NCBI RefSeq assembly: GCF_014084105.1
Contig: NZ_CP048289.1
Location: forward strand, 419,922-443,921
Direction: 5' to 3'
Length of the DNA: 24,000 bases
Origin: Streptacidiphilus sp. P02-A3a
Lineage (GTDB): Bacteria > Actinomycetota > Actinomycetes > Streptomycetales > Streptomycetaceae
The position numbers were made by a program, and so were the translations under genes. Below the pieces are notes generated by a model. That model was not told the DNA's origin. It did no database searches and saw only the letters and a list, made by a program, of their open reading frames with translations. Positions 4,152 through 11,045 of this stretch are shown here, piece by piece; positions within the stretch are counted from its first letter, which is position 1; each line of letters opens with the position of its first letter.

Positions 4152-4553
4152 TCAGACGGCGCCCGGTACCGAGCCCTGGGCGGCCAACTGCGCTTCACCG
4201 TTGCCGAGCGACCAGTTGGCGAGGGCGTTGTCGGTGAGCGTGATGAGGACGTCCTCGGGCCGGACCCCGGCGTCGGTCAGGTTGGCGGTGATCTGCTGGT
4301 GCAGCTTGAGCTTGAGCTGCGCCGGGCGGCCTTCGACCAGGGTGATCCGGACGAAGACCACGTCCCGGCGGTCGACGCCGAGGTAGTCGGGGTCGAAGAC
4401 CAGCTCGTCGGCGGGGTGCGGGGTGATGATCTGGAAGCGGTCCCCGGCGGGGATGCCGACGGTGTCGACCAGGGCCCGGTGCACGCCGGAGGCGATGGCG
4501 CGGCGGGCCTCGGGGGTGCGGGTGTCGGCGAGATCGATCTGGACCAGAGGCAT
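4152..4553 (-). CDS. tautomerase family protein (4-OT superfamily, Pro-1 type)
   Basis: Start ATG at 4553 gives 'MPLVQIDL...' with the catalytic Pro directly after Met, about 133 aa. The ORF-track start at 4640 adds an unlikely low-GC N-terminus. Confidence 0.8.
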   Translation of the reverse strand: MPLVQIDLADTRTPEARRAIASGVHRALVDTVGIPAGDRFQIITPHPADELVFDPDYLGVDRRDVVFVRITLVEGRPAQLKLKLHQQITANLTDAGVRPEDVLITLTDNALANWSLGNGEAQLAAQGSVPGAV

Positions 4554-4590
4554 GGGAGGACTCGCTTTCCGGAATGCGTGGTTACGGGTA

Positions 4591-4616
4591 ATGTGTTCGA
4601 CGTAGGTCGACCACAT
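4591..4616. promoter_or_regulatory. imperfect inverted repeat ATGTGTTCGAC-GTAG-GTCGACCACAT; candidate ArsR-family operator in the divergent intergenic region
   Basis: 11-bp arms with one mismatch. A third half-site, TCGAACAC, is at 4633-4640. A TAGTGT -10-like hexamer (4617-4622) follows immediately, and an AAGGAGG SD precedes the GTG at 4658. Confidence 0.4.
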
Positions 4617-4657
4617 TAGTGTATGGCTAACATCGAACACTCTGCAAGGAGGGAACC

Positions 4658-5035
4658 GTGTCCGCCCGCACCCGCAACCTGACCCACACCCACCCGTCCG
4701 AGGTCGCGCTGCAGGACGCTCTGGTGGCGGTTGCCGACCCGATCCGCCGCGCCATCGTCAAGGAACTGGCCGCGAACCCCGACTGGACCCGCGCCTGCGG
4801 CACCTTCGACCTGGCCGTGACCAAGGCGACCCGCAGCCACCACTTCACCGTGCTGCGCTCGGCCGGGCTGATCGAGCAGCGGGACGAGGGGCCGCGCCGC
4901 CTCAACCGGCTCCGCCGCGCGGAGTTCGACCAGTACTTCCCCGGCCTGCTCGACCTGGTCCTCACCGAACCCGCGTCCGCCGACGCGGCATCCGGCGAAC
5001 CCACGTCCGCTGAACCCGAGGAACCGGCTCGGTAA
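4658..5035 (+). CDS. ArsR/SmtB-family HTH transcriptional regulator
   Basis: GTG start with AAGGAGGG SD 5 nt upstream. 'LVAVADPIRRAIVKELA...TKATRSHHFTVLRSAGLIEQRDEG' is a winged-HTH ArsR pattern. Confidence 0.85.
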   Translation: MSARTRNLTHTHPSEVALQDALVAVADPIRRAIVKELAANPDWTRACGTFDLAVTKATRSHHFTVLRSAGLIEQRDEGPRRLNRLRRAEFDQYFPGLLDLVLTEPASADAASGEPTSAEPEEPAR

Positions 5036-5048
5036 CCCCGTGCCGGGT

Positions 5049-5456
5049 TCAGCCGCGCAGGACCCGGGTCACCGCCTGGGTGCGGTCGGTGACGCCCAAC
5101 TTGCCGAATATCGAGTGCAGATGGTTCTTCACTGTCGGCTCGGCGATGACCATCCGACGGGCGATCTGCCGGTTGGACAGCCCGAGCAGCAGCAGTTCCA
5201 TGACCCGGGTCTCACGCTGGGTCAGCCGGGCCAGCGCCGGGGCCGACCACTCCGGAACCCCCTTCTCCGGAACCCCCTTCTCCGGATGCTCGATGATTTC
5301 GCTGGTCCCCCTTTCCTGGCTCCCTTTTCCGGACGGTTCAGGTCCGGCGGCGTGCACCAGGACTTCCAGCCGCGAGACGAGTTGCCCGGCCTCGCGCAGC
5401 AGCGCGGCGAGCATGGTCTCGTCGGTTGTGTCTCCCACGGGCAGCCTTTCGTTCAC
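5049..5456 (-). CDS. small LuxR-family (FixJ/NarL-type C-terminal HTH) regulator
   Basis: 'LTQRETRVMELLLLGLSNRQIARRMVIAEPTVKNHLHSIFGKLGV'. GTG start. No receiver domain. Confidence 0.8.
   Translation of the reverse strand: MNERLPVGDTTDETMLAALLREAGQLVSRLEVLVHAAGPEPSGKGSQERGTSEIIEHPEKGVPEKGVPEWSAPALARLTQRETRVMELLLLGLSNRQIARRMVIAEPTVKNHLHSIFGKLGVTDRTQAVTRVLRG
5251..5286. repeat. 15-bp in-frame tandem duplication (TCCGGAACCCCCTTC x2.4) encoding EKGVPEKGVPE in the LuxR gene linker
   Basis: Read directly in the sequence and in the translation. Confidence 0.85.
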
Positions 5457-5597: not shown

Positions 5598-7028
5598 TCA
5601 GGGCCTCCCCAGCAGGTGACTTCCGGCGGCTGCCCGGCCGCGCGCGGTGAAGAATTCCCGGAATCCCGCGATAAACTCCTCCGCATCGATACGCCCGTCG
5701 CCGTCCCGGTCGAGCTGCCGGTATCCGTGGTTGAGCTCGGCGGGGTGGGTGCGCTTGCCGAAGGCCCGGCGGTAGTCGTCCTGCCCGAGGAAGCCGTCCC
5801 CGTCGGTGTCGATGGCGTCGAACAGGGCGCGAGTGGCCCGGTCCAGGCCCTTGCTGAGGTAGTCCGGGTCGTCGTCCAGACCGGCCAGGGTCGCGGCCAC
5901 GAACCCGGCCCGGCTGATCCGCCCCTCGCCGTCGGCGGCCCGGCCGATCTGCTCCCACCAGGCGCGGAAGCCGTCGTACACCTTGGTCTCGGTCGCCGCG
6001 TCGAGTTCCAGGTCCCAGCAGGCGGCGCGGGCCATCGCCTCCAGGTCGGCCCGGGTCAGGTAGCCGTCGCCGGTCTGGTCCAGGACATGGGTGAACAGCC
6101 GTTCCAGCTTGCGGGCACGCAGGTCCCGGCGGAACCGGCCCAGCAGCGAGCCGCCGCCGACGTCCTCACGCGGACCGGCCAGCCGGATCGCGTCGGCCGC
6201 GTACCCCTGGTACCGCCAGCCGCCGTGCAGCCGTTCGGCCAGCGTCCGCCAGCCCCGGTGGGTGAGTCGGGAGAGGGTCCGGGCGCGGCCGGAGGCGGTC
6301 AGTCCGAGCCGGTCCCGGTACGCCGGCGGCAGGTCCGCCACGATCACGGCGACGATCAGCCGGGCCGCGAGCGGGCGGACCGCGAGCCACAGCGGCGGAC
6401 ACCAGCGCAGCTGGGCGGGCGCGACCGCGTGCCGGTAGAAGTCCCCGAGCAGGTCGCGGACCGGCGGGTTGTCCTCCAGCACCTCGCGCAGCATGGTGTC
6501 GAAGTACCGCCAGAAGGACGCCGGGTCGGCGGGCAGCGCCTCCCGGGGCAGGCCCAGGGACACCGCGACGGCCTGCCACTCCTGGTAGAGCAGCGCCTCG
6601 TCCGCCGCCGACAGCGGGCGTCCGGACAGGCGGCACATCGCCACGATGCCCTCGAACACGGTGCCGAGCACCCAGGCGCGGGCGGCGGGATCAGCCGCCG
6701 TGTAGGGGCGGCCGTGGGCGTCGGTGCCGCTGATCCGGCGGTGCTGGCGGCCGATCCGCTCGATCTCGCGGGCCCGGGCGGCGGGCGCGGCGTAGATCAG
6801 CCGTTGCAGGCTGTCCAGGGTGTGCTGGGCCCGGCGCCACGGATGCGCGTGGTACGTCGAGTGCTCCGCCACCCCGGCGCCGACCACCGGGTGGGCGTTC
6901 TGCAGCACCAGCAGTCGGCCCAGCATCAGCAGGAAGCGCCACTCGCCGATATGACGCCAGGTCACCGAACCGGCGCGGGGGTAGCCCTCGGGGTCGGGCA
7001 CGGCCTGGTGCCCGGCGGCGTCAGCCAT
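5598..7028 (-). CDS. MpaB/Lcp-family (DUF2236) oxygenase fused to a C-terminal 4-EF-hand calcium-binding domain
   Basis: N-terminal part 'WRHIGEWRFLLMLGRLLVLQNAHPVVGAGVAEHSTYHAHPWRRAQHTLDSL' looks like the DUF2236 catalytic domain. The C-terminal ~169 aa (5598-6107) carries loops DQTGDGYLTRAD, ADGEGRISRAG (degenerate), DTDGDGFLGQDD and DRDGDGRIDAEE. ATG at 7028 overlaps the upstream stop (ATGGCTGA). Confidence 0.85.
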   Translation of the reverse strand: MADAAGHQAVPDPEGYPRAGSVTWRHIGEWRFLLMLGRLLVLQNAHPVVGAGVAEHSTYHAHPWRRAQHTLDSLQRLIYAAPAARAREIERIGRQHRRISGTDAHGRPYTAADPAARAWVLGTVFEGIVAMCRLSGRPLSAADEALLYQEWQAVAVSLGLPREALPADPASFWRYFDTMLREVLEDNPPVRDLLGDFYRHAVAPAQLRWCPPLWLAVRPLAARLIVAVIVADLPPAYRDRLGLTASGRARTLSRLTHRGWRTLAERLHGGWRYQGYAADAIRLAGPREDVGGGSLLGRFRRDLRARKLERLFTHVLDQTGDGYLTRADLEAMARAACWDLELDAATETKVYDGFRAWWEQIGRAADGEGRISRAGFVAATLAGLDDDPDYLSKGLDRATRALFDAIDTDGDGFLGQDDYRRAFGKRTHPAELNHGYRQLDRDGDGRIDAEEFIAGFREFFTARGRAAAGSHLLGRP

Positions 7029-7968
7029 GGCGCACCTGCCCGTGTCCGGCCAGCAGCAGCCGGGCGGTCGGCAGCAGCGGGTGCCCGACCCGCCGCCGCC
7101 GAACCCGCTCACCGGCTCGCTCGATGGCCTCCAGGTGCAGCGAGTGCATCAGCAGAAAGGCGTTCATCATCGGACGCAGCTCCAGGGGGGTGAGGTCGAG
7201 CACCGGACGGGCGGCGTACAGCGCGGTGCGGGCGCGGGCGATCTGCACGGCGAGCTCCGCGCCGGGCAACCGGACGCGGTCGGCTGGGTCGGCGGGGTCG
7301 GCTGGGTCGGCGGGGTCGGCGGGGTCGGTAGGTTCGGCACGGTCGGTACGGGCGTCCTCGGCCAGGTCGGCCAGGAAGTCGATCCGCTGGCAGGCGGCGG
7401 CGAGCAGCCAGTACGCCCGTGCGTGCCCCGGCTCGCGGCAGCCGGGGTGCACGCCGACCAGCAGCAGCAGGTACGGCAGCGACACCCGGTCCACGTAGCG
7501 CTCGAACTCCGCCTCGCCCGCGAGCGCGGCGCGCCCGCCGCCGGAGGTCCCCTCGGCGTCCTGCCGCATGCCGCTGAGGAAGCGGTTGATCCACTCGGTC
7601 GGCAGCCCGCGCTCGACCGCGGTACGGGCGAACGCGGCCAGCTGCGGGCTCGCCCCGGGCCCCGGTACCGCACCGGCCGCTGTTCCGGCCGCCTCCTCGG
7701 CCAGGGCCCGGCGGACGGTGGCGGACCAGTGGTCGAAGCGCTCCCGGCGGCCGGTCGCCGGGCCGCTGTCGGCGACCGCGTCGGTGGCCCGGGCGAACCA
7801 GTAGCAGACCAGCAGGTGCGGTTGCAGCGCCGCCGGGACCAGCAGCCTGACGGCCAGGCAGTGGACCGGGTCCGCGCGCAGCAGGGTGCGCACGGCCGCG
7901 CGGTACTCCCGGCGCGCGGCCGGGTCCCGGATCCCGGCGAGGTCCAGGGCCCGGCCGAAGCGGATCAT
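7021..7968 (-). CDS. squalene/phytoene synthase family (head-to-head trans-IPPS fold) protein
   Basis: 'RLLVPAALQPHLLVCYWFARATDAVAD' (first Asp-rich DxxxD), 'FERYVDRVSLPYLLLL', 'AACQRIDFLADLAEDA...LPGAEL' (second Asp-rich region), 'MNAFLLMHSLHLEAIERAG'. Start ATG 7968 forms ATGA with the uppS-like stop. The ORF-track 595-aa version adds an Arg-rich artefact. Confidence 0.8.
   Translation of the reverse strand: MIRFGRALDLAGIRDPAARREYRAAVRTLLRADPVHCLAVRLLVPAALQPHLLVCYWFARATDAVADSGPATGRRERFDHWSATVRRALAEEAAGTAAGAVPGPGASPQLAAFARTAVERGLPTEWINRFLSGMRQDAEGTSGGGRAALAGEAEFERYVDRVSLPYLLLLVGVHPGCREPGHARAYWLLAAACQRIDFLADLAEDARTDRAEPTDPADPADPADPADPADRVRLPGAELAVQIARARTALYAARPVLDLTPLELRPMMNAFLLMHSLHLEAIERAGERVRRRRVGHPLLPTARLLLAGHGQVRHG
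7278..7331. repeat. 9-bp in-frame tandem repeat (GGTCGGCKG x6, plus 2 degenerate copies to about 7349) encoding (PAD)n inside the synthase-like gene
   Basis: Read directly. Protein 'EPTDPADPADPADPADPADR', located just after the second Asp-rich motif. Confidence 0.85.
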
Positions 7969-8765
7969 CCGACCCCCCTGGCCGCGCCGAAGCGGCGGGT
8001 CCTGGAGGCGTAGCCCTCGATCGCCCGCCACAGGTCGAGCCGGTCGAAGTCGGGCCAGAGCACGTCGGTGAAGAAGAGCTCGGCGTAGGCGCTCTGCCAG
8101 AGCAGGAAGTTGCTCAGCCGCTGCTCGCCCGAGGTGCGGATGACCAGGTCGACGTCGAACAGGTCGGGGTGGAACAACCGCCTGCCGAACTCCGCGTCGG
8201 TGACGTCGGTCAGCGCCAGCGTCCCGGCCCTGACCTCCTCGCAGAGCTGTGCGGCGGCGGCCACCAGCTCGTCCCGGCTGCCGTAGTCGACGCAGACCGT
8301 GAGGCTCATGCCGTCGTTGTCCCTGGTCCGCCGCTCGTACTCGCGCAGGGTCCCGGCCAGCGGCTCGGTCAGCCGGTCGCGCCGCCCGCTCCAGCGGATC
8401 CGGACCCCGCGCGCGTACCAGCTCTCCCCGTGGTCGAGCAGCAGCTGCCGGATCACCCGCAGCACGCACTCGACCTCGCCCGGATCCCGCCGCCAGTTCT
8501 CGGTGGAGAAGGCGAAGACCGAGATCTGCCCCAGCCCGATCTCCAGCGCGCCGTCGACCGCCTCGACGATCGCGGAGACGCCCGCCTCGTGCCCGGCGCT
8601 CCGGGGCAGCCCCCGCCCGAGCGCCCAACGGCCGTTCCCGTCCATGATCACTGCGACATGGCGCGGTAACCGCTCGGCGGCCACGGTCGGCGGTCGCGCG
8701 CCGGAGGGATGGGGTTTCGTCAATGGCCGGACGACCCGGCTGCCTGATTCTCCGACGTAGGCCAT
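7965..8765 (-). CDS. uppS: isoprenyl transferase (cis-prenyltransferase, UPP synthase family)
   Basis: 'HVAVIMDGNGRWA', 'FAFSTENWRR', 'DLVIRTSGEQRLSNFLLWQSAYAELFF', 'RTRRFG': full set of cis-PT motifs. AAAGGAG SD before the ATG at 8765. I cannot tell whether this is the housekeeping copy or a paralog. Confidence 0.9.
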   Translation of the reverse strand: MAYVGESGSRVVRPLTKPHPSGARPPTVAAERLPRHVAVIMDGNGRWALGRGLPRSAGHEAGVSAIVEAVDGALEIGLGQISVFAFSTENWRRDPGEVECVLRVIRQLLLDHGESWYARGVRIRWSGRRDRLTEPLAGTLREYERRTRDNDGMSLTVCVDYGSRDELVAAAAQLCEEVRAGTLALTDVTDAEFGRRLFHPDLFDVDLVIRTSGEQRLSNFLLWQSAYAELFFTDVLWPDFDRLDLWRAIEGYASRTRRFGAARGVG

Positions 8766-8812
8766 GCGGCTCCTTTTTCGTGGGAAAGTCCTCCGGAACT
8801 CCGAGCATCCGC

Positions 8813-8831
8813 GACCGGATAATGTCCGGTC
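8813..8831. promoter_or_regulatory. 7-5-7 perfect palindrome GACCGGA-TAATG-TCCGGTC in the 203-bp divergent control region
   Basis: Read directly. It lies in the lower-GC stretch between the uppS-like start (8765) and the small-protein operon start (8969). Confidence 0.35.
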
Positions 8832-8968
8832 AATGGGTTTCCGGGTTTCTCGGGGCAGGCCGTTCGAACCAGTTCCTGCGATCTATGGACGCCCCTCCCC
8901 GTGATTGTCAGGCTGGGTGGCGGAGTGAGGCGCACGACAACCGCGCGAACGTATATACGGGAGAATGA

Positions 8969-9256
8969 ATGGCCAGTGACCGGGGTAGGCAGCGGACGAG
9001 TCTGGCGAAATACGTCGGCGGGGTGCTCGAAGCGGTGGAGGAATTCGTCACCGATACCCGCGAATGTGTCGAAGGATTCCTGGAGAACTCGGATTCCGTC
9101 CAGCGGAGCGCGTTGCGGACGGCGCGGCGCGCGCTGCGCCCGGGCAGCGAGCCCGAGCCGGACGAACTGGCCGCGCTGCGGGCGGAGGTGGCCGCACTCG
9201 CCGCCCGGCTCAGCCGGTACGAGGCGGCACCCGCCGACGTACCCGAGCCCGCGTGA
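8969..9256 (+). CDS. hypothetical small protein (95 aa), predicted helical/coiled
   Basis: ATG with GGGAGA SD. Strong third-position GC bias. C-terminal 'DELAALRAEVAALAARLSRYE' heptad-like segment. Stop overlaps the next start (GTGA). Confidence 0.6.
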   Translation: MASDRGRQRTSLAKYVGGVLEAVEEFVTDTRECVEGFLENSDSVQRSALRTARRALRPGSEPEPDELAALRAEVAALAARLSRYEAAPADVPEPA

Positions 9257-9540
9257 GCGCCGCCCCGGAGCAGCCGTCCGGGCCCGGCGGCCCGCTGCGC
9301 CGCACCCGTGAGGGCGTGCTCCGCGACCCGCTGCGTCCGGGGGCCGACAGCGCCGCCCTGGTCCGTGCCGGGCTGCGGGCGGACCGCCGGTTCCGGGTCA
9401 CCGACGAGGAGACCGGGCAGGACTGCACCGTCGAGGTCCTGGCGGAGTTCCTGCTCGGCGCCTGCACCCGCCCGGCCGCCCGGTCGCTCGCCACGGCCCT
9501 CGGCGCGGACGGCCGGACCTCGCCGGTGACGTCCGGGTGA
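9253..9540 (+). CDS. hypothetical small protein (95 aa)
   Basis: GTG 9253 overlaps the upstream TGA. Its own TGA (9538-9540) overlaps the GTG (9537) of the kinase gene. High GC3. No motif recognised. Confidence 0.55.
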   Translation: MSAAPEQPSGPGGPLRRTREGVLRDPLRPGADSAALVRAGLRADRRFRVTDEETGQDCTVEVLAEFLLGACTRPAARSLATALGADGRTSPVTSG

Positions 9541-11045
9541 GGGAACCACGCGGCAACCAGGTCGCTCGGCTGGTCGCCCTGCTGACCTCGGACGCGCTGT
9601 CCGCGCGCGGCGAGGGCCGGGGCGGTGGCGAGCGCCCGCACCGCCGGGCGGTGCGGATCCGGTCGCTGATGGAGGAACTGGGCCCGTTCTACGTGAAGCT
9701 CGGCCAGATGCTGTCCACCCGGCCCGACATCATCAGCGAGGCGCTGACCGTGGAACTCGGGCGGCTGCACCAGGCGGTGCGGCCCACCCCGTTCGCTCGG
9801 TTCGAACCGGTCCTGGACCGGGAACTCGGTCGCGGCTGGCGCCGTGAACTCCGCGACATCGAGGCCGCCGAGCCGCTCGGCTCCGCCTCGCTCGCCCAGG
9901 TCTACCGGGCCACCCGGCCCGACGGCGTCCCCGCCGTGGTCAAGATCCAGCGGCCCGGCGCCCGGGCCCGGGTGCTGGCCGACATGGCGGCGCTGCGCCG
10001 GGCCGCGCGGGTCGTCGGCCGCGCGCTGCCCGGACTGGACGCGGTCTTCGACATCGACGCCACCCTGCACGTCCTCTCCGACGCCATGCAGCCCGAACTC
10101 GACTTCCAGGTCGAGGCCCGGAACATGGAGTCCGCCCGGCGGATGACAGCGGACTTCGACCTGGTCAACGTGCCCGGAGTGGTCCGGGCGACGCCACAGG
10201 TGCTGGTGCAGGACCTGGCCCCGGGAGGGCCGATCGGCTCGGCGCCGGCCGGGGAACTCCCCGTCGCCACCCGGCAGGCGATCGGCAGCCAGCTGCTCGC
10301 CTTCATGTACCGGGGCTACTTCACCGAGCGCTGCTTCCACGCCGATCCGCACCCCGGAAACGTCTTCGTCGACCCGGAGCGGGGCGCCACCCTGATCGAC
10401 TGGGGAATGGTCGGCAGGCTGGACCGCAACCTCAGCGGGCTCGGCATGCTGACCCTCACCAGCCTCGCCCAGAACGACGCCCGGGGCCTGGTCAGCGCCT
10501 GGGTCGGGATGGGCAGGGCGACCCTCCGGGCCGACCTGCCCGGCTTCCAGGAGGACATGAGCCGCCTGGTGCCCAGGATCTCCGCCGCCTCGTTGGAGAA
10601 CCTGGACTTCGGCGTGGCGCTGAGCACCATCCTGCGGCAGTCCGCCCGCCGGGGGATCCGCACCAGCCCGATGATCGGACTGCTCGGCAAGTCCTTCGCC
10701 AACATCGAGGGTTCGGTCCGGCTGATCGCGCCGGAGCTGTCCATCGTCACCGTGTTCCGCGAGGCGTTGACCGACGTGATGGTCGAACTCGCCCGCGAGA
10801 TGCTCTCCGTGGAGCAGTCGGCCCGCACCGCGCTGGACGTGATGGCGGGCGGGACCATCGCCCTGGACCAGATCCGCAGCATCCTGCGGGACGTGTCGGG
10901 CCACGAGGCCACCATGCGGGTCGGCCTGCTGCCGGGACACGGCATCGGCGGCGAGGGGGACGGCCGAGTCAGCCGCTACTGGCCCCATCTCGCGGCCTCC
11001 GCCGGTCTCCTGTGGTTCCTGCGCCGCGAACTCCGGCACCGCTGA
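9537..11045 (+). CDS. ABC1/UbiB (AarF) atypical kinase family protein
   Basis: 'LGPFYVKLGQMLSTRPDI', 'EPLGSASLAQVYRA...AVVKIQRPG', 'DFQVEARN', 'FHADPHPGNVFVD...LIDWGMVGRL': canonical ABC1 motif series. Confidence 0.9.
   Translation: MREPRGNQVARLVALLTSDALSARGEGRGGGERPHRRAVRIRSLMEELGPFYVKLGQMLSTRPDIISEALTVELGRLHQAVRPTPFARFEPVLDRELGRGWRRELRDIEAAEPLGSASLAQVYRATRPDGVPAVVKIQRPGARARVLADMAALRRAARVVGRALPGLDAVFDIDATLHVLSDAMQPELDFQVEARNMESARRMTADFDLVNVPGVVRATPQVLVQDLAPGGPIGSAPAGELPVATRQAIGSQLLAFMYRGYFTERCFHADPHPGNVFVDPERGATLIDWGMVGRLDRNLSGLGMLTLTSLAQNDARGLVSAWVGMGRATLRADLPGFQEDMSRLVPRISAASLENLDFGVALSTILRQSARRGIRTSPMIGLLGKSFANIEGSVRLIAPELSIVTVFREALTDVMVELAREMLSVEQSARTALDVMAGGTIALDQIRSILRDVSGHEATMRVGLLPGHGIGGEGDGRVSRYWPHLAASAGLLWFLRRELRHR

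Follow-up and report, generated by a model that had tools for sequence, protein, structure and literature searches.

A conserved trio of two small proteins and an ABC1 kinase beside a prenyl operon in Streptacidiphilus: a candidate lipid-handling unit of a seven-gene isoprenoid module

In Streptacidiphilus sp. P02-A3a, two genes for 95-residue proteins (here P1 and P2) and a gene for a UbiB/ABC1-family atypical kinase form a tightly coupled operon that stands back to back with a prenyl operon. The stretch of DNA analysed, referred to throughout as the window, comprises 24,000 nucleotides (nt) of a chromosome arm (positions 419,922-443,921 on the single 9.33-Mb contig NZ_CP048289.1). The trio is, on balance, probably a lipid-handling unit for the hydrophobic prenyl products of the adjacent enzymes, and would make up half of an isoprenoid-lipid module of seven genes. 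The genes are real, the synteny of all seven is conserved, and P2 is homologous to the N-terminal domain of the regulator PhaR (PhaR-N); P2-like genes are always adjacent to an ABC1 gene, and members of the kinase clade recur inside terpenoid gene clusters. A preliminary description of this DNA had proposed a six-gene isoprenoid-lipid module; the single module stands, and its gene count rises to seven, since a LuxR/GerE-type regulator belongs to it too. The genes are laid out as follows.

5049-5456, minus strand: open reading frame of a small LuxR/GerE-type helix-turn-helix (HTH) regulator, with a GerE-family gene in the same place in three metagenomic lineages
5598-7028, minus strand: MpaB/Lcp-type (DUF2236) haem oxygenase fused to C-terminal EF-hands (MpaB-EF), the last gene of the prenyl operon
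7021-7968, minus strand: squalene/phytoene-synthase-fold (SQS/PSY) enzyme of the head-to-head prenyl condensing type (Pfam SQS_PSY, 3.1e-23)
7965-8765, minus strand: cis-prenyltransferase of the UppS family (Pfam Prenyltransf, 1.8e-72; TIGR00055, 236 bits)
8766-8968, no strand: divergent spacer between the start of the uppS-like gene (8765, minus strand) and the P1 start codon (8969, plus strand)
8969-9256, plus strand: P1, 95 residues, from ATG 8969 to TGA 9256
9253-9540, plus strand: P2, 95 residues, from GTG 9253 to TGA 9540
9537-11045, plus strand: UbiB/ABC1-family atypical kinase/ATPase, 502 residues, starting with GTG 9537

The reading frames of P1, P2 and ABC1 are supported by their high third-position GC (0.82, 0.96 and 0.94, respectively). 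The three genes are joined by GTGA stop/start overlaps at 9253-9256 and 9537-9540, coordinates that the preliminary description had given exactly, and both 4-nt overlaps are preserved in three independent metagenomic lineages. The overlap between a P2-like gene and ABC1 is also preserved in Sporichthyaceae-type genomes, Actinomadura, Thermomonospora and Spirillospora, and on these comparisons the overlaps exceed chance.

Synteny between the two operons, which the preliminary description had left to be checked, is kept in three further lineages despite different outer flanks. At loci L003-L005, L009-L010 and L006-L008 the order GerE, MpaB-EF, SQS_PSY and Prenyltransf, divergent from P1-P2-ABC1, is identical to that of the window, as is the orientation of every gene, with P1 identities to the window copy of 88%, 72% and 61% among the three lineages. 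The flanks hold, one set per lineage, an Nramp transporter gene; genes for a BCCT transporter and a cytochrome P450/ferredoxin system; or genes for MarR, an LprG-like protein and a major facilitator superfamily (MFS) transporter. P1 and P2 were found in none of 40 relatives (22 of the same genus), and peptide-pattern scans for either protein across 185,579 species genomes returned nothing, with patterns that proved too narrow, as profile searches found distant members. From its absence in the relatives and in the pattern scans, the seven-gene module is a rare accessory unit. Nor is it housekeeping, since the genome carries four cis-prenyltransferase paralogues and its second ABC1 gene is a different paralogue, just 31% identical to the window's.

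Kinases 45-63% identical to the window's ABC1 occur in 16 of the 250 genomes sampled from the order. Two of the surveyed genomes (G184 and G232) carry a single co-directional uppS-sqs-mpaB(EF)-abc1 operon without P1 and P2, and a Catenulispora-like genome (G075) has uppS divergent from a P1 homologue followed by ABC1, without P2; the closest database relative of the G075 P1 comes from a Catenulispora metagenome-assembled genome (MAG). Because the same partners stay together despite reshuffled gene order, these arrangements provide strong comparative evidence for a functional link between the kinase and the prenyl enzymes.

The trio is not confined to this module. All 16 P2-like genes examined, from several actinomycete orders, lie directly upstream of an ABC1 gene, an outcome that bears out the expectation of co-occurrence, and the full trio (a P2-like gene directly upstream of ABC1 with a P1-family gene adjacent) is present in the window and at 15 other loci from several actinomycete families and metagenomes. 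A profile search for P2-like sequences returned 61 proteins, with sources that include Planomonospora, Planobispora, Thermomonospora, Actinomadura, Spirillospora, Sporichthyaceae and Acidimicrobiia MAGs. In Actinomadura sp. GTD37, one Thermomonospora and one Spirillospora, a single operon encodes a terpene synthase, a P1-like protein, a P2-like protein, ABC1 and a polyprenyl synthase, and the P1 hidden Markov model (HMM) confirms the identity of the small proteins upstream of the P2-like genes. In Planobispora and two Planomonospora genomes, genes for terpene synthase and polyprenyl synthase likewise adjoin the trio, and the Planobispora locus also has a gene for 1-deoxy-D-xylulose 5-phosphate (DXP) synthase. 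Within the window's own family, the kinases of G208, G128 and G146 adjoin terpene synthase and polyprenyl synthase genes; upstream of the kinase stands an HMM-supported P1-like gene in G208 and a similar small open reading frame in G146. Among the surveyed genomes (those with G numbers), isoprenoid genes lie beside all eight kinases with 50% or more identity to the window's ABC1. The theme common to the trio loci is hydrophobic lipid, with isoprenoids dominant in Streptomycetales and Streptosporangiales. Searches of the literature on MpaB/cis-prenyltransferase clusters, on PhaR with ABC1 and on terpene synthases with UbiB/AarF found no paper describing the trio or the module.

Both small proteins evolve as proteins, a point on which the preliminary description had made its proposal depend. 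For P1, which is 56-88% identical across the four lineages, dN/dS (the ratio of nonsynonymous to synonymous change) is 0.25-0.39, all insertions and deletions are in frame, and variable sites fall 35/24/52 on codon positions 1/2/3 (p = 0.005 for the third-position excess). For P2 (56-92% identical), dN/dS is 0.37-0.68, insertions and deletions are again all in frame, and the core (residues 14-68) shows 14/13/27 variable sites by codon position (p = 0.03), with no codon-position bias in the tails. With dN/dS under 1, indels that keep the frame and a surplus of third-position changes, P1 and P2 are real genes. A search of 5.8 billion proteins gave five homologues of P1 beyond the window copy, and three of P2. 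P2 also has 95 residues in the public record; a longer form of 158 residues from ATG 9064, which would overlap P1 in another frame, was ruled out, as the homologues all start at the GTG overlapping the P1 stop and share a conserved MSA/MSG N-terminus.

Profile-profile comparison (hhalign) aligns residues 15-74 of P2 with an actinomycete PhaR-N profile at 96.4% probability and E = 1.1e-9, a match by which P2 is recognised as what appears to be a minimal, divergent PhaR N-terminal (PHB_acc_N) domain over those residues. The Pfam PHB_acc_N model (PF07879) scores 17.3 bits against P2, under its cut-off of 25. The C-terminal part of PhaR is missing: P2 has 95 residues versus about 150-200, shows no match to PHB_acc or a second domain, and past residue 74 consists of a poorly conserved, low-confidence, disordered tail. 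An AlphaFold2 model (pLDDT, the predicted local distance difference test score, of 60) contains a beta-beta-alpha-beta-beta core. Residues G21, D25, F47, T54, C58, T59, E61 and L63 are invariant in the kinase-linked P2 forms. The cysteine lies in the motif TG-x-(D/E)-C-T-x-E-V-L of kinase-linked P2-like proteins, whereas its position is occupied by Met, Ile or Leu in true PhaR-N proteins; Cys58 may be a redox, metal or lipidation site. In three Sporichthyaceae-type genomes (G513, G483 and G468), a 144-residue protein with the P2 core motif FEAETEETGRDCTMEVL is encoded by a gene that overlaps the ABC1 start by 4 nt, and genuine PhaR-N proteins (PF07879, 3e-17) are encoded nearby.

P1 is a member of a rare actinomycete family of helical coiled-coil proteins that has no Pfam model. 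It is acidic (isoelectric point 4.9), and a variable linker joins its conserved, amphipathic N-terminal helix to a coiled coil of three heptads. The AlphaFold2 model (pLDDT 75) has a long helix at 9-56 and a second at 64-86. The hydrophobic moment of the first peaks at 0.65 (p about 0.02), which marks it as amphipathic, and the second is a three-heptad Leu/Val zipper: the heptad-like C-terminus noticed earlier is realised as L67, L70, V74, L77, L81 and Y84, in 3-4-3-4-3 spacing on the predicted helix. An HMM search of 1.84 billion representatives recovered 14 true clusters, all unnamed or hypothetical; a 1666-residue WD40 protein (P0013) from the P1 profile search was a repeat-driven false positive. 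Membership in the Pfam phasin, DUF6779 or BMFP families was ruled out, all matches being sub-threshold. The phasin models PF05597 and TIGR01837 gave 12.5 bits (cut-off 28.8) and 13.6 bits (cut-off 94.7), respectively, and Phasin appears at E up to 1 in just 1 of 18 P1-family members. P1 was likewise rejected as a UbiK/BMFP protein (PF04380), with 12.6 bits versus 37.2 and 1.6% hhalign probability against E. coli UbiK.

The setting of P1-family genes elsewhere is more telling of their kind. In G513, G483, G468 and G389 they lie directly 5' of genuine PhaR genes, and the polyhydroxyalkanoate (PHA) synthase PhaC is present in all three P1-PhaR genomes checked (G513, G483 and G389); PhaC was not found in the window's genome or in Planomonospora. 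This P1-PhaR order is that of classical phasin-PhaR loci, and the description that fits P1 best is therefore phasin-like by genomic context, as distinct from family membership. A phasin-like role of the family is further supported by G389 (L059:7527-10415), a PhaC-bearing genome in which a DUF445 protein gene is followed by a P1-like gene (4-nt overlap), a genuine PhaR-N gene and a second P1-like gene; no ABC1 gene lies close by.

The spacer between the two operons is 203 bp long (8766-8968) and, as first described, of lower GC than its surroundings (60.6% versus 72.6% for the window). It contains the following elements.

8813-8831, no strand: inverted repeat GACCGGA-TAATG-TCCGGTC with perfect arms
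8829-8836: conserved block GTCAATGG
8858-8876: conserved block GGCCGTTCGAACCAGTTCC, with GTTC twice, 10 bp apart
8883-8890: conserved block CTATGGAC
8959-8963: GGGAG ribosome-binding site

The preliminary description had singled out the 7-5-7 palindrome at 8813-8831. The perfect repeat is indeed present, but it is no more than chance would give and is not the conserved control element: perfect repeats (arms of at least 7 nt, loop 0-10 nt) arise in 12% of shuffles of the spacer and occur window-wide at 0.74 per 203 bp, and among the related loci one arm is mismatched in L004 and the palindrome is broken in L009 and L006. On both grounds it was ruled out as a shared operator. Three other blocks (GTCAATGG, GGCCGTTCGAACCAGTTCC and CTATGGAC) are conserved in the four-lineage alignment. 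The 19-mer GGCCGTTCGAACCAGTTCC occurs once in the 9.33-Mb genome and was rejected as a regulon motif on account of this uniqueness and a modest excess of 2-mismatch matches (9 versus 5 in the control). A leader RNA or riboswitch was also ruled out, as the spacer matches no Rfam family and shows no RNA covariation. A search of the spacer for consensus sigma-70 promoters came back empty; inspection yields TTGACC-17-GATGCT as a possible leftward promoter. The conserved blocks would most simply be local DNA control sites.

These features of P2, P1 and the spacer bear on the alternative that fares best against a lipid-handling trio, a circuit in the style of PhaR and the phasin PhaP. In such a circuit P2 would bind and repress the divergent promoters, and elsewhere the terpene operons as well, until titrated off by the hydrophobic product, P1 would be a phasin-like coat under its control, and ABC1 would be independent and merely co-expressed. 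The homology of P2 to the DNA-binding N-domain of PhaR, the placement of P1-like genes directly upstream of true PhaR in PhaC-positive genomes and the conserved spacer blocks that are unique in the genome all speak for it. Against these, P2 lacks the C-terminal granule-binding part of PhaR, with no PHB_acc match; the kinase-linked P2 forms are a separate group, whose invariant Cys is missing in true PhaR-N; several actinomycete lineages preserve the 4-nt overlap between P2 and ABC1, a sign of stoichiometric co-production; and the module already has a LuxR regulator. We regard such a circuit as rather unlikely.

The third protein of the trio is an unambiguous ABC1-family member (Pfam ABC1, PF03109, 1.2e-48, 165.9 bits versus a cut-off of 22.9). 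The UbiB-specific KxGQ motif and the catalytic motifs are intact when aligned to the mycobacterial structure 5YJZ (FYVKLGQ, VVKIQRPG, PELDF..EARN, FHADPHPGN and IDWG), and the protein ends in a short conserved hydrophobic segment, YWPHLAASAGLLWFL. Its active site is intact, and gene neighbourhoods link its clade to genes for terpenoids and lipids. Among solved structures the mycobacterial ABC1 proteins 5YJZ (E 2e-26) and 7CY2 come closest, followed by COQ8A and COQ8B. Assignment as UbiB proper was ruled out (TIGR01982, 237.7 versus 487.55; NF003404, 157.7 versus 667), as was assignment as MABP-1 (NF050082, 97.2 bits versus a cut-off of 800).

An intact active site could also mean that ABC1 is a true protein kinase that regulates the neighbouring enzymes, or P1 and P2, by phosphorylation, as has been proposed for the ABC1 kinases (ABC1Ks) of plastoglobules. 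The catalytic Lys, Glu, HxDxHPGN and DxG motifs would permit this, and a passage of PMC8956952 reports Mn2+-dependent kinase activity for a plant ABC1K. The UbiB-specific KxGQ motif speaks for the other side, as does the evidence on COQ8 presented in part of PMC13418538, which favours ATPase and lipid-chaperone activity, and the sequence singles out no phosphorylation substrate; we consider regulation by phosphorylation improbable. Still less credence attaches to ABC1 as a product-binding protein of self-protection or sequestration akin to the macrolide-binding ATPase MABP-1 (Rv3197), with P1 and P2 as unrelated small proteins. The closest solved structure, 5YJZ, and a weak match to the NCBIfam MABP-1 model would suit such a role, but that match reaches 97 bits where 800 are needed, P2 and ABC1 are coupled in all cases examined, and P1 and P2 are under constraint alongside the kinase. 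That the kinase and prenyl operons adjoin by accident of gene order, with no functional link, is hardly credible: both do occupy a variable chromosome arm and isoprenoid neighbours are lacking for nine related kinases, but four lineages with different flanks share the arrangement, single operons in G184 and G232 unite the same genes, and the kinase adjoins another isoprenoid class (terpene synthase plus polyprenyl synthase) in at least eight genera.

We return to the trio as a handling unit for prenyl products. The left operon (cis-prenyltransferase, SQS/PSY-fold enzyme and MpaB-EF) probably builds a hydrophobic lipid derived from a cis-prenyl chain and then cleaves it oxidatively; going by domain families alone, the steps would be cis-prenyl chain synthesis, SQS-type condensation and Lcp/MpaB-type oxidative C=C cleavage, and the EF-hands suggest that cleavage may be calcium-responsive. 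The right operon would deliver P1, P2 and ABC1 in fixed proportion through translational coupling. The UbiB/ABC1 protein would use ATP to extract a water-insoluble prenyl intermediate or product from a membrane or inclusion, or to present it, with P1 as a surface-active, oligomerising adaptor and P2 as a kinase-bound adaptor or sensor. P2 may in addition recognise the conserved DNA of the spacer in the way that PhaR recognises its operators. What we infer from this arrangement is a physical complex, lipid handling driven by ATP, the product chemistry and DNA binding by P2. The argument for a handling unit draws on the analogy with COQ8 and plastoglobules and on translational coupling. Passages of PMC13418538 describe COQ8/UbiB proteins as ATPases that bring insoluble prenyl-lipid intermediates of coenzyme Q (CoQ) to the enzymes of a biosynthetic metabolon, and in plastids and cyanobacteria ABC1Ks together with fibrillins, a family of coat proteins, are the dominant proteins of prenyl-lipid droplets (PMC12223511). 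UbiB/ABC1 proteins occur in bacteria, archaea and eukaryotes, according to part of PMC8956952, and CoQ deficiency results from mutations in COQ8A, the human homologue (PMC10354825).

Several observations weigh against a dedicated prenyl-handling trio. The preliminary description had cast both small proteins as partners of the kinase; the constant adjacency of P2-like genes to ABC1 agrees with this, but P2 is missing in G075 and both proteins are missing from the G184 and G232 operons, and P1 and P2 are therefore not universal partners of the prenyl enzymes. No curated family reached threshold for P1, and a fold search with the low-confidence P2 model against the Protein Data Bank (PDB) returned nothing below E = 0.8. 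PhaR-N is annotated as a DNA-binding domain, which suits a kinase subunit no better than a regulator. Nine kinases of genus g8, 47-50% (about 49%) identical to the window's ABC1, form a tight clade and have no isoprenoid gene within about 10 kb. At the Sporichthyaceae-type loci the trio stands among SRPBCC, PNPOx-like, SDR and PhaR genes, once with WS/DGAT, and without terpenoid genes; because this setting resembles lipid storage, the cargo of the trio may extend to hydrophobic lipid of any kind and need not be isoprenoid.

A more specific proposal, which we put forward only tentatively, is that the trio constitutes a 'hydrophobic-product body' system with P1 as phasin-like coat or adaptor, P2 as minimal PhaR-type sensor and the UbiB protein as ATPase, a bacterial counterpart of the plastoglobule ABC1K-fibrillin system. 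It would derive from the PhaP/PhaR pair of PHA granules and have been recruited later to isoprenoids, P2 would couple product sensing to kinase activity, to transcription or to both, and the product here would be a cis-polyprenyl-derived lipid processed by a calcium-responsive Lcp-like oxygenase.

Systems of known kind, UbiB with accessory factors and PhaR with a phasin, resemble parts of this arrangement; what is new is the terpenoid-embedded P1-P2-ABC1 trio. Like the trio, UbiB with UbiJ and UbiK, and COQ8 with the CoQ metabolon, combine a UbiB-family ATPase with small accessory proteins, including a short coiled coil, in a pathway of very hydrophobic prenyl lipids, and their KxGQ and catalytic motifs are also found in the window's ABC1. 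Unlike them, the window's ABC1 is not a UbiB orthologue (TIGR01982), P1 is not UbiK, and the module has no SCP2/UbiJ protein; those systems serve quinone synthesis, whereas the neighbours of the trio are cis-prenyltransferase, SQS-like and MpaB genes, or terpene synthases elsewhere. Plastoglobules and cyanoglobules similarly bring ABC1 kinases, structural coat proteins and prenyl-lipid enzymes together on a hydrophobic body (PMC12223511), although no fibrillin homologue was detected here and P1 has no fibrillin match in Pfam at E up to 1. The trio also differs in being encoded in one operon, and no droplet has been observed in these bacteria. To the PhaR-PhaP circuit of PHA granules the trio is tied by the PhaR-N homology of P2, the position of P1-family genes upstream of PhaR and the small, amphipathic, helical character that P1 shares with phasins; it is set apart by the missing C-terminal part of P2, P1 scores below both phasin models, the lack of PhaC in the window's genome and Planomonospora, and the coupling of the pair to an ABC1 kinase among isoprenoid genes. 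Rv3197/MABP-1 (PDB 5YJZ), the closest solved structure, belongs to the same broad actinobacterial ABC1 group as the window protein, but the match covers the kinase core only, at low identity, with the NCBIfam model far under its cut-off and a different genomic setting.

The molecular role of UbiB proteins is still debated, and most work has concerned ubiquinone synthesis or plant plastoglobules, which are hard to dissect. A clade of bacterial UbiB homologues in compact terpenoid clusters of four to seven genes, with two coupled small partners, makes this function testable: such clusters can be transferred to a laboratory Streptomyces, their genes removed singly, and the effect of the UbiB protein on a defined hydrophobic substrate followed. 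The module also flags an uncharacterised pathway that unites a cis-prenyltransferase, an SQS-like enzyme and an Lcp-like oxygenase fused to EF-hands, and it suggests that accessory genes which terpene genome mining routinely passes over may affect product yield or localisation.

Within the prenyl operon, the SQS/PSY and uppS genes are joined by an ATGA overlap (7965-7968), and the start of the MpaB-EF gene overlaps the SQS stop. ATG 7028 is its likely start, since homologues have 475-476 residues. The MpaB-EF protein matches Pfam MPAB_Lcp_cat (3.1e-55) and EF-hand_7 (4e-14), and the same fusion is found in G184 and G232, where the alignment spans residues 43-503. The SQS/PSY-fold enzyme was rejected as an HpnC/HpnD equivalog (HpnC, 53 bits versus a cut-off of 250). 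The cis-prenyltransferase is an extra paralogue, one of four PF01255 loci in the genome (1,059,825; 1,812,354; 5,037,493; and the window), an unusually high number. The LuxR/GerE gene is 58-87% identical across lineages with dN/dS of 0.29-0.63, and its true start may be further inside the open reading frame, as homologues have only 100-116 residues.

Several loci show variations around the trio. The g8 kinase loci are L029, L030, L074-L079 and L081; at L029 a small upstream open reading frame has a P1-like N-terminus, and an LCM-type methyltransferase gene lies downstream. The Sporichthyaceae-type loci (L045:6639-13207 in G513, L046, L096 and L097) form a larger cluster with P2-like, ABC1 and P1-like genes, in which a P1-like gene is followed by full PhaR-N and SRPBCC (Polyketide_cyc2) genes, together with PNPOx-like, SDR and TetR genes; one metagenomic contig adds WS/DGAT and lipase genes. 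The cluster has the appearance of a lipid-inclusion locus. Downstream of P1 in the closest relative, one public assembly (L003:10285-12708) calls proteins of 129, 195 and 289 residues, whereas two other assemblies of the same lineage give 117 and 509, and frameshift errors in L003 are the likely cause. The left flank of the window (4152-5035; tautomerase and ArsR-type HTH genes) is syntenic with L003-L005:3480-5736 of this closest metagenomic relative, in which an Nramp transporter gene, absent from the window, lies between the ArsR and LuxR genes. In the most distant lineage (L006:12359-15171), genes for a ferredoxin reductase, a P450 and a ferredoxin directly follow ABC1 and may lengthen the pathway by oxidising the prenyl product further. 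At L009:8961-11155 the module is followed by genes for an LppX/LprAFG-type lipid-binding lipoprotein and an MFS transporter, which resemble the mycobacterial lprG-rv1410c lipid-export pair.

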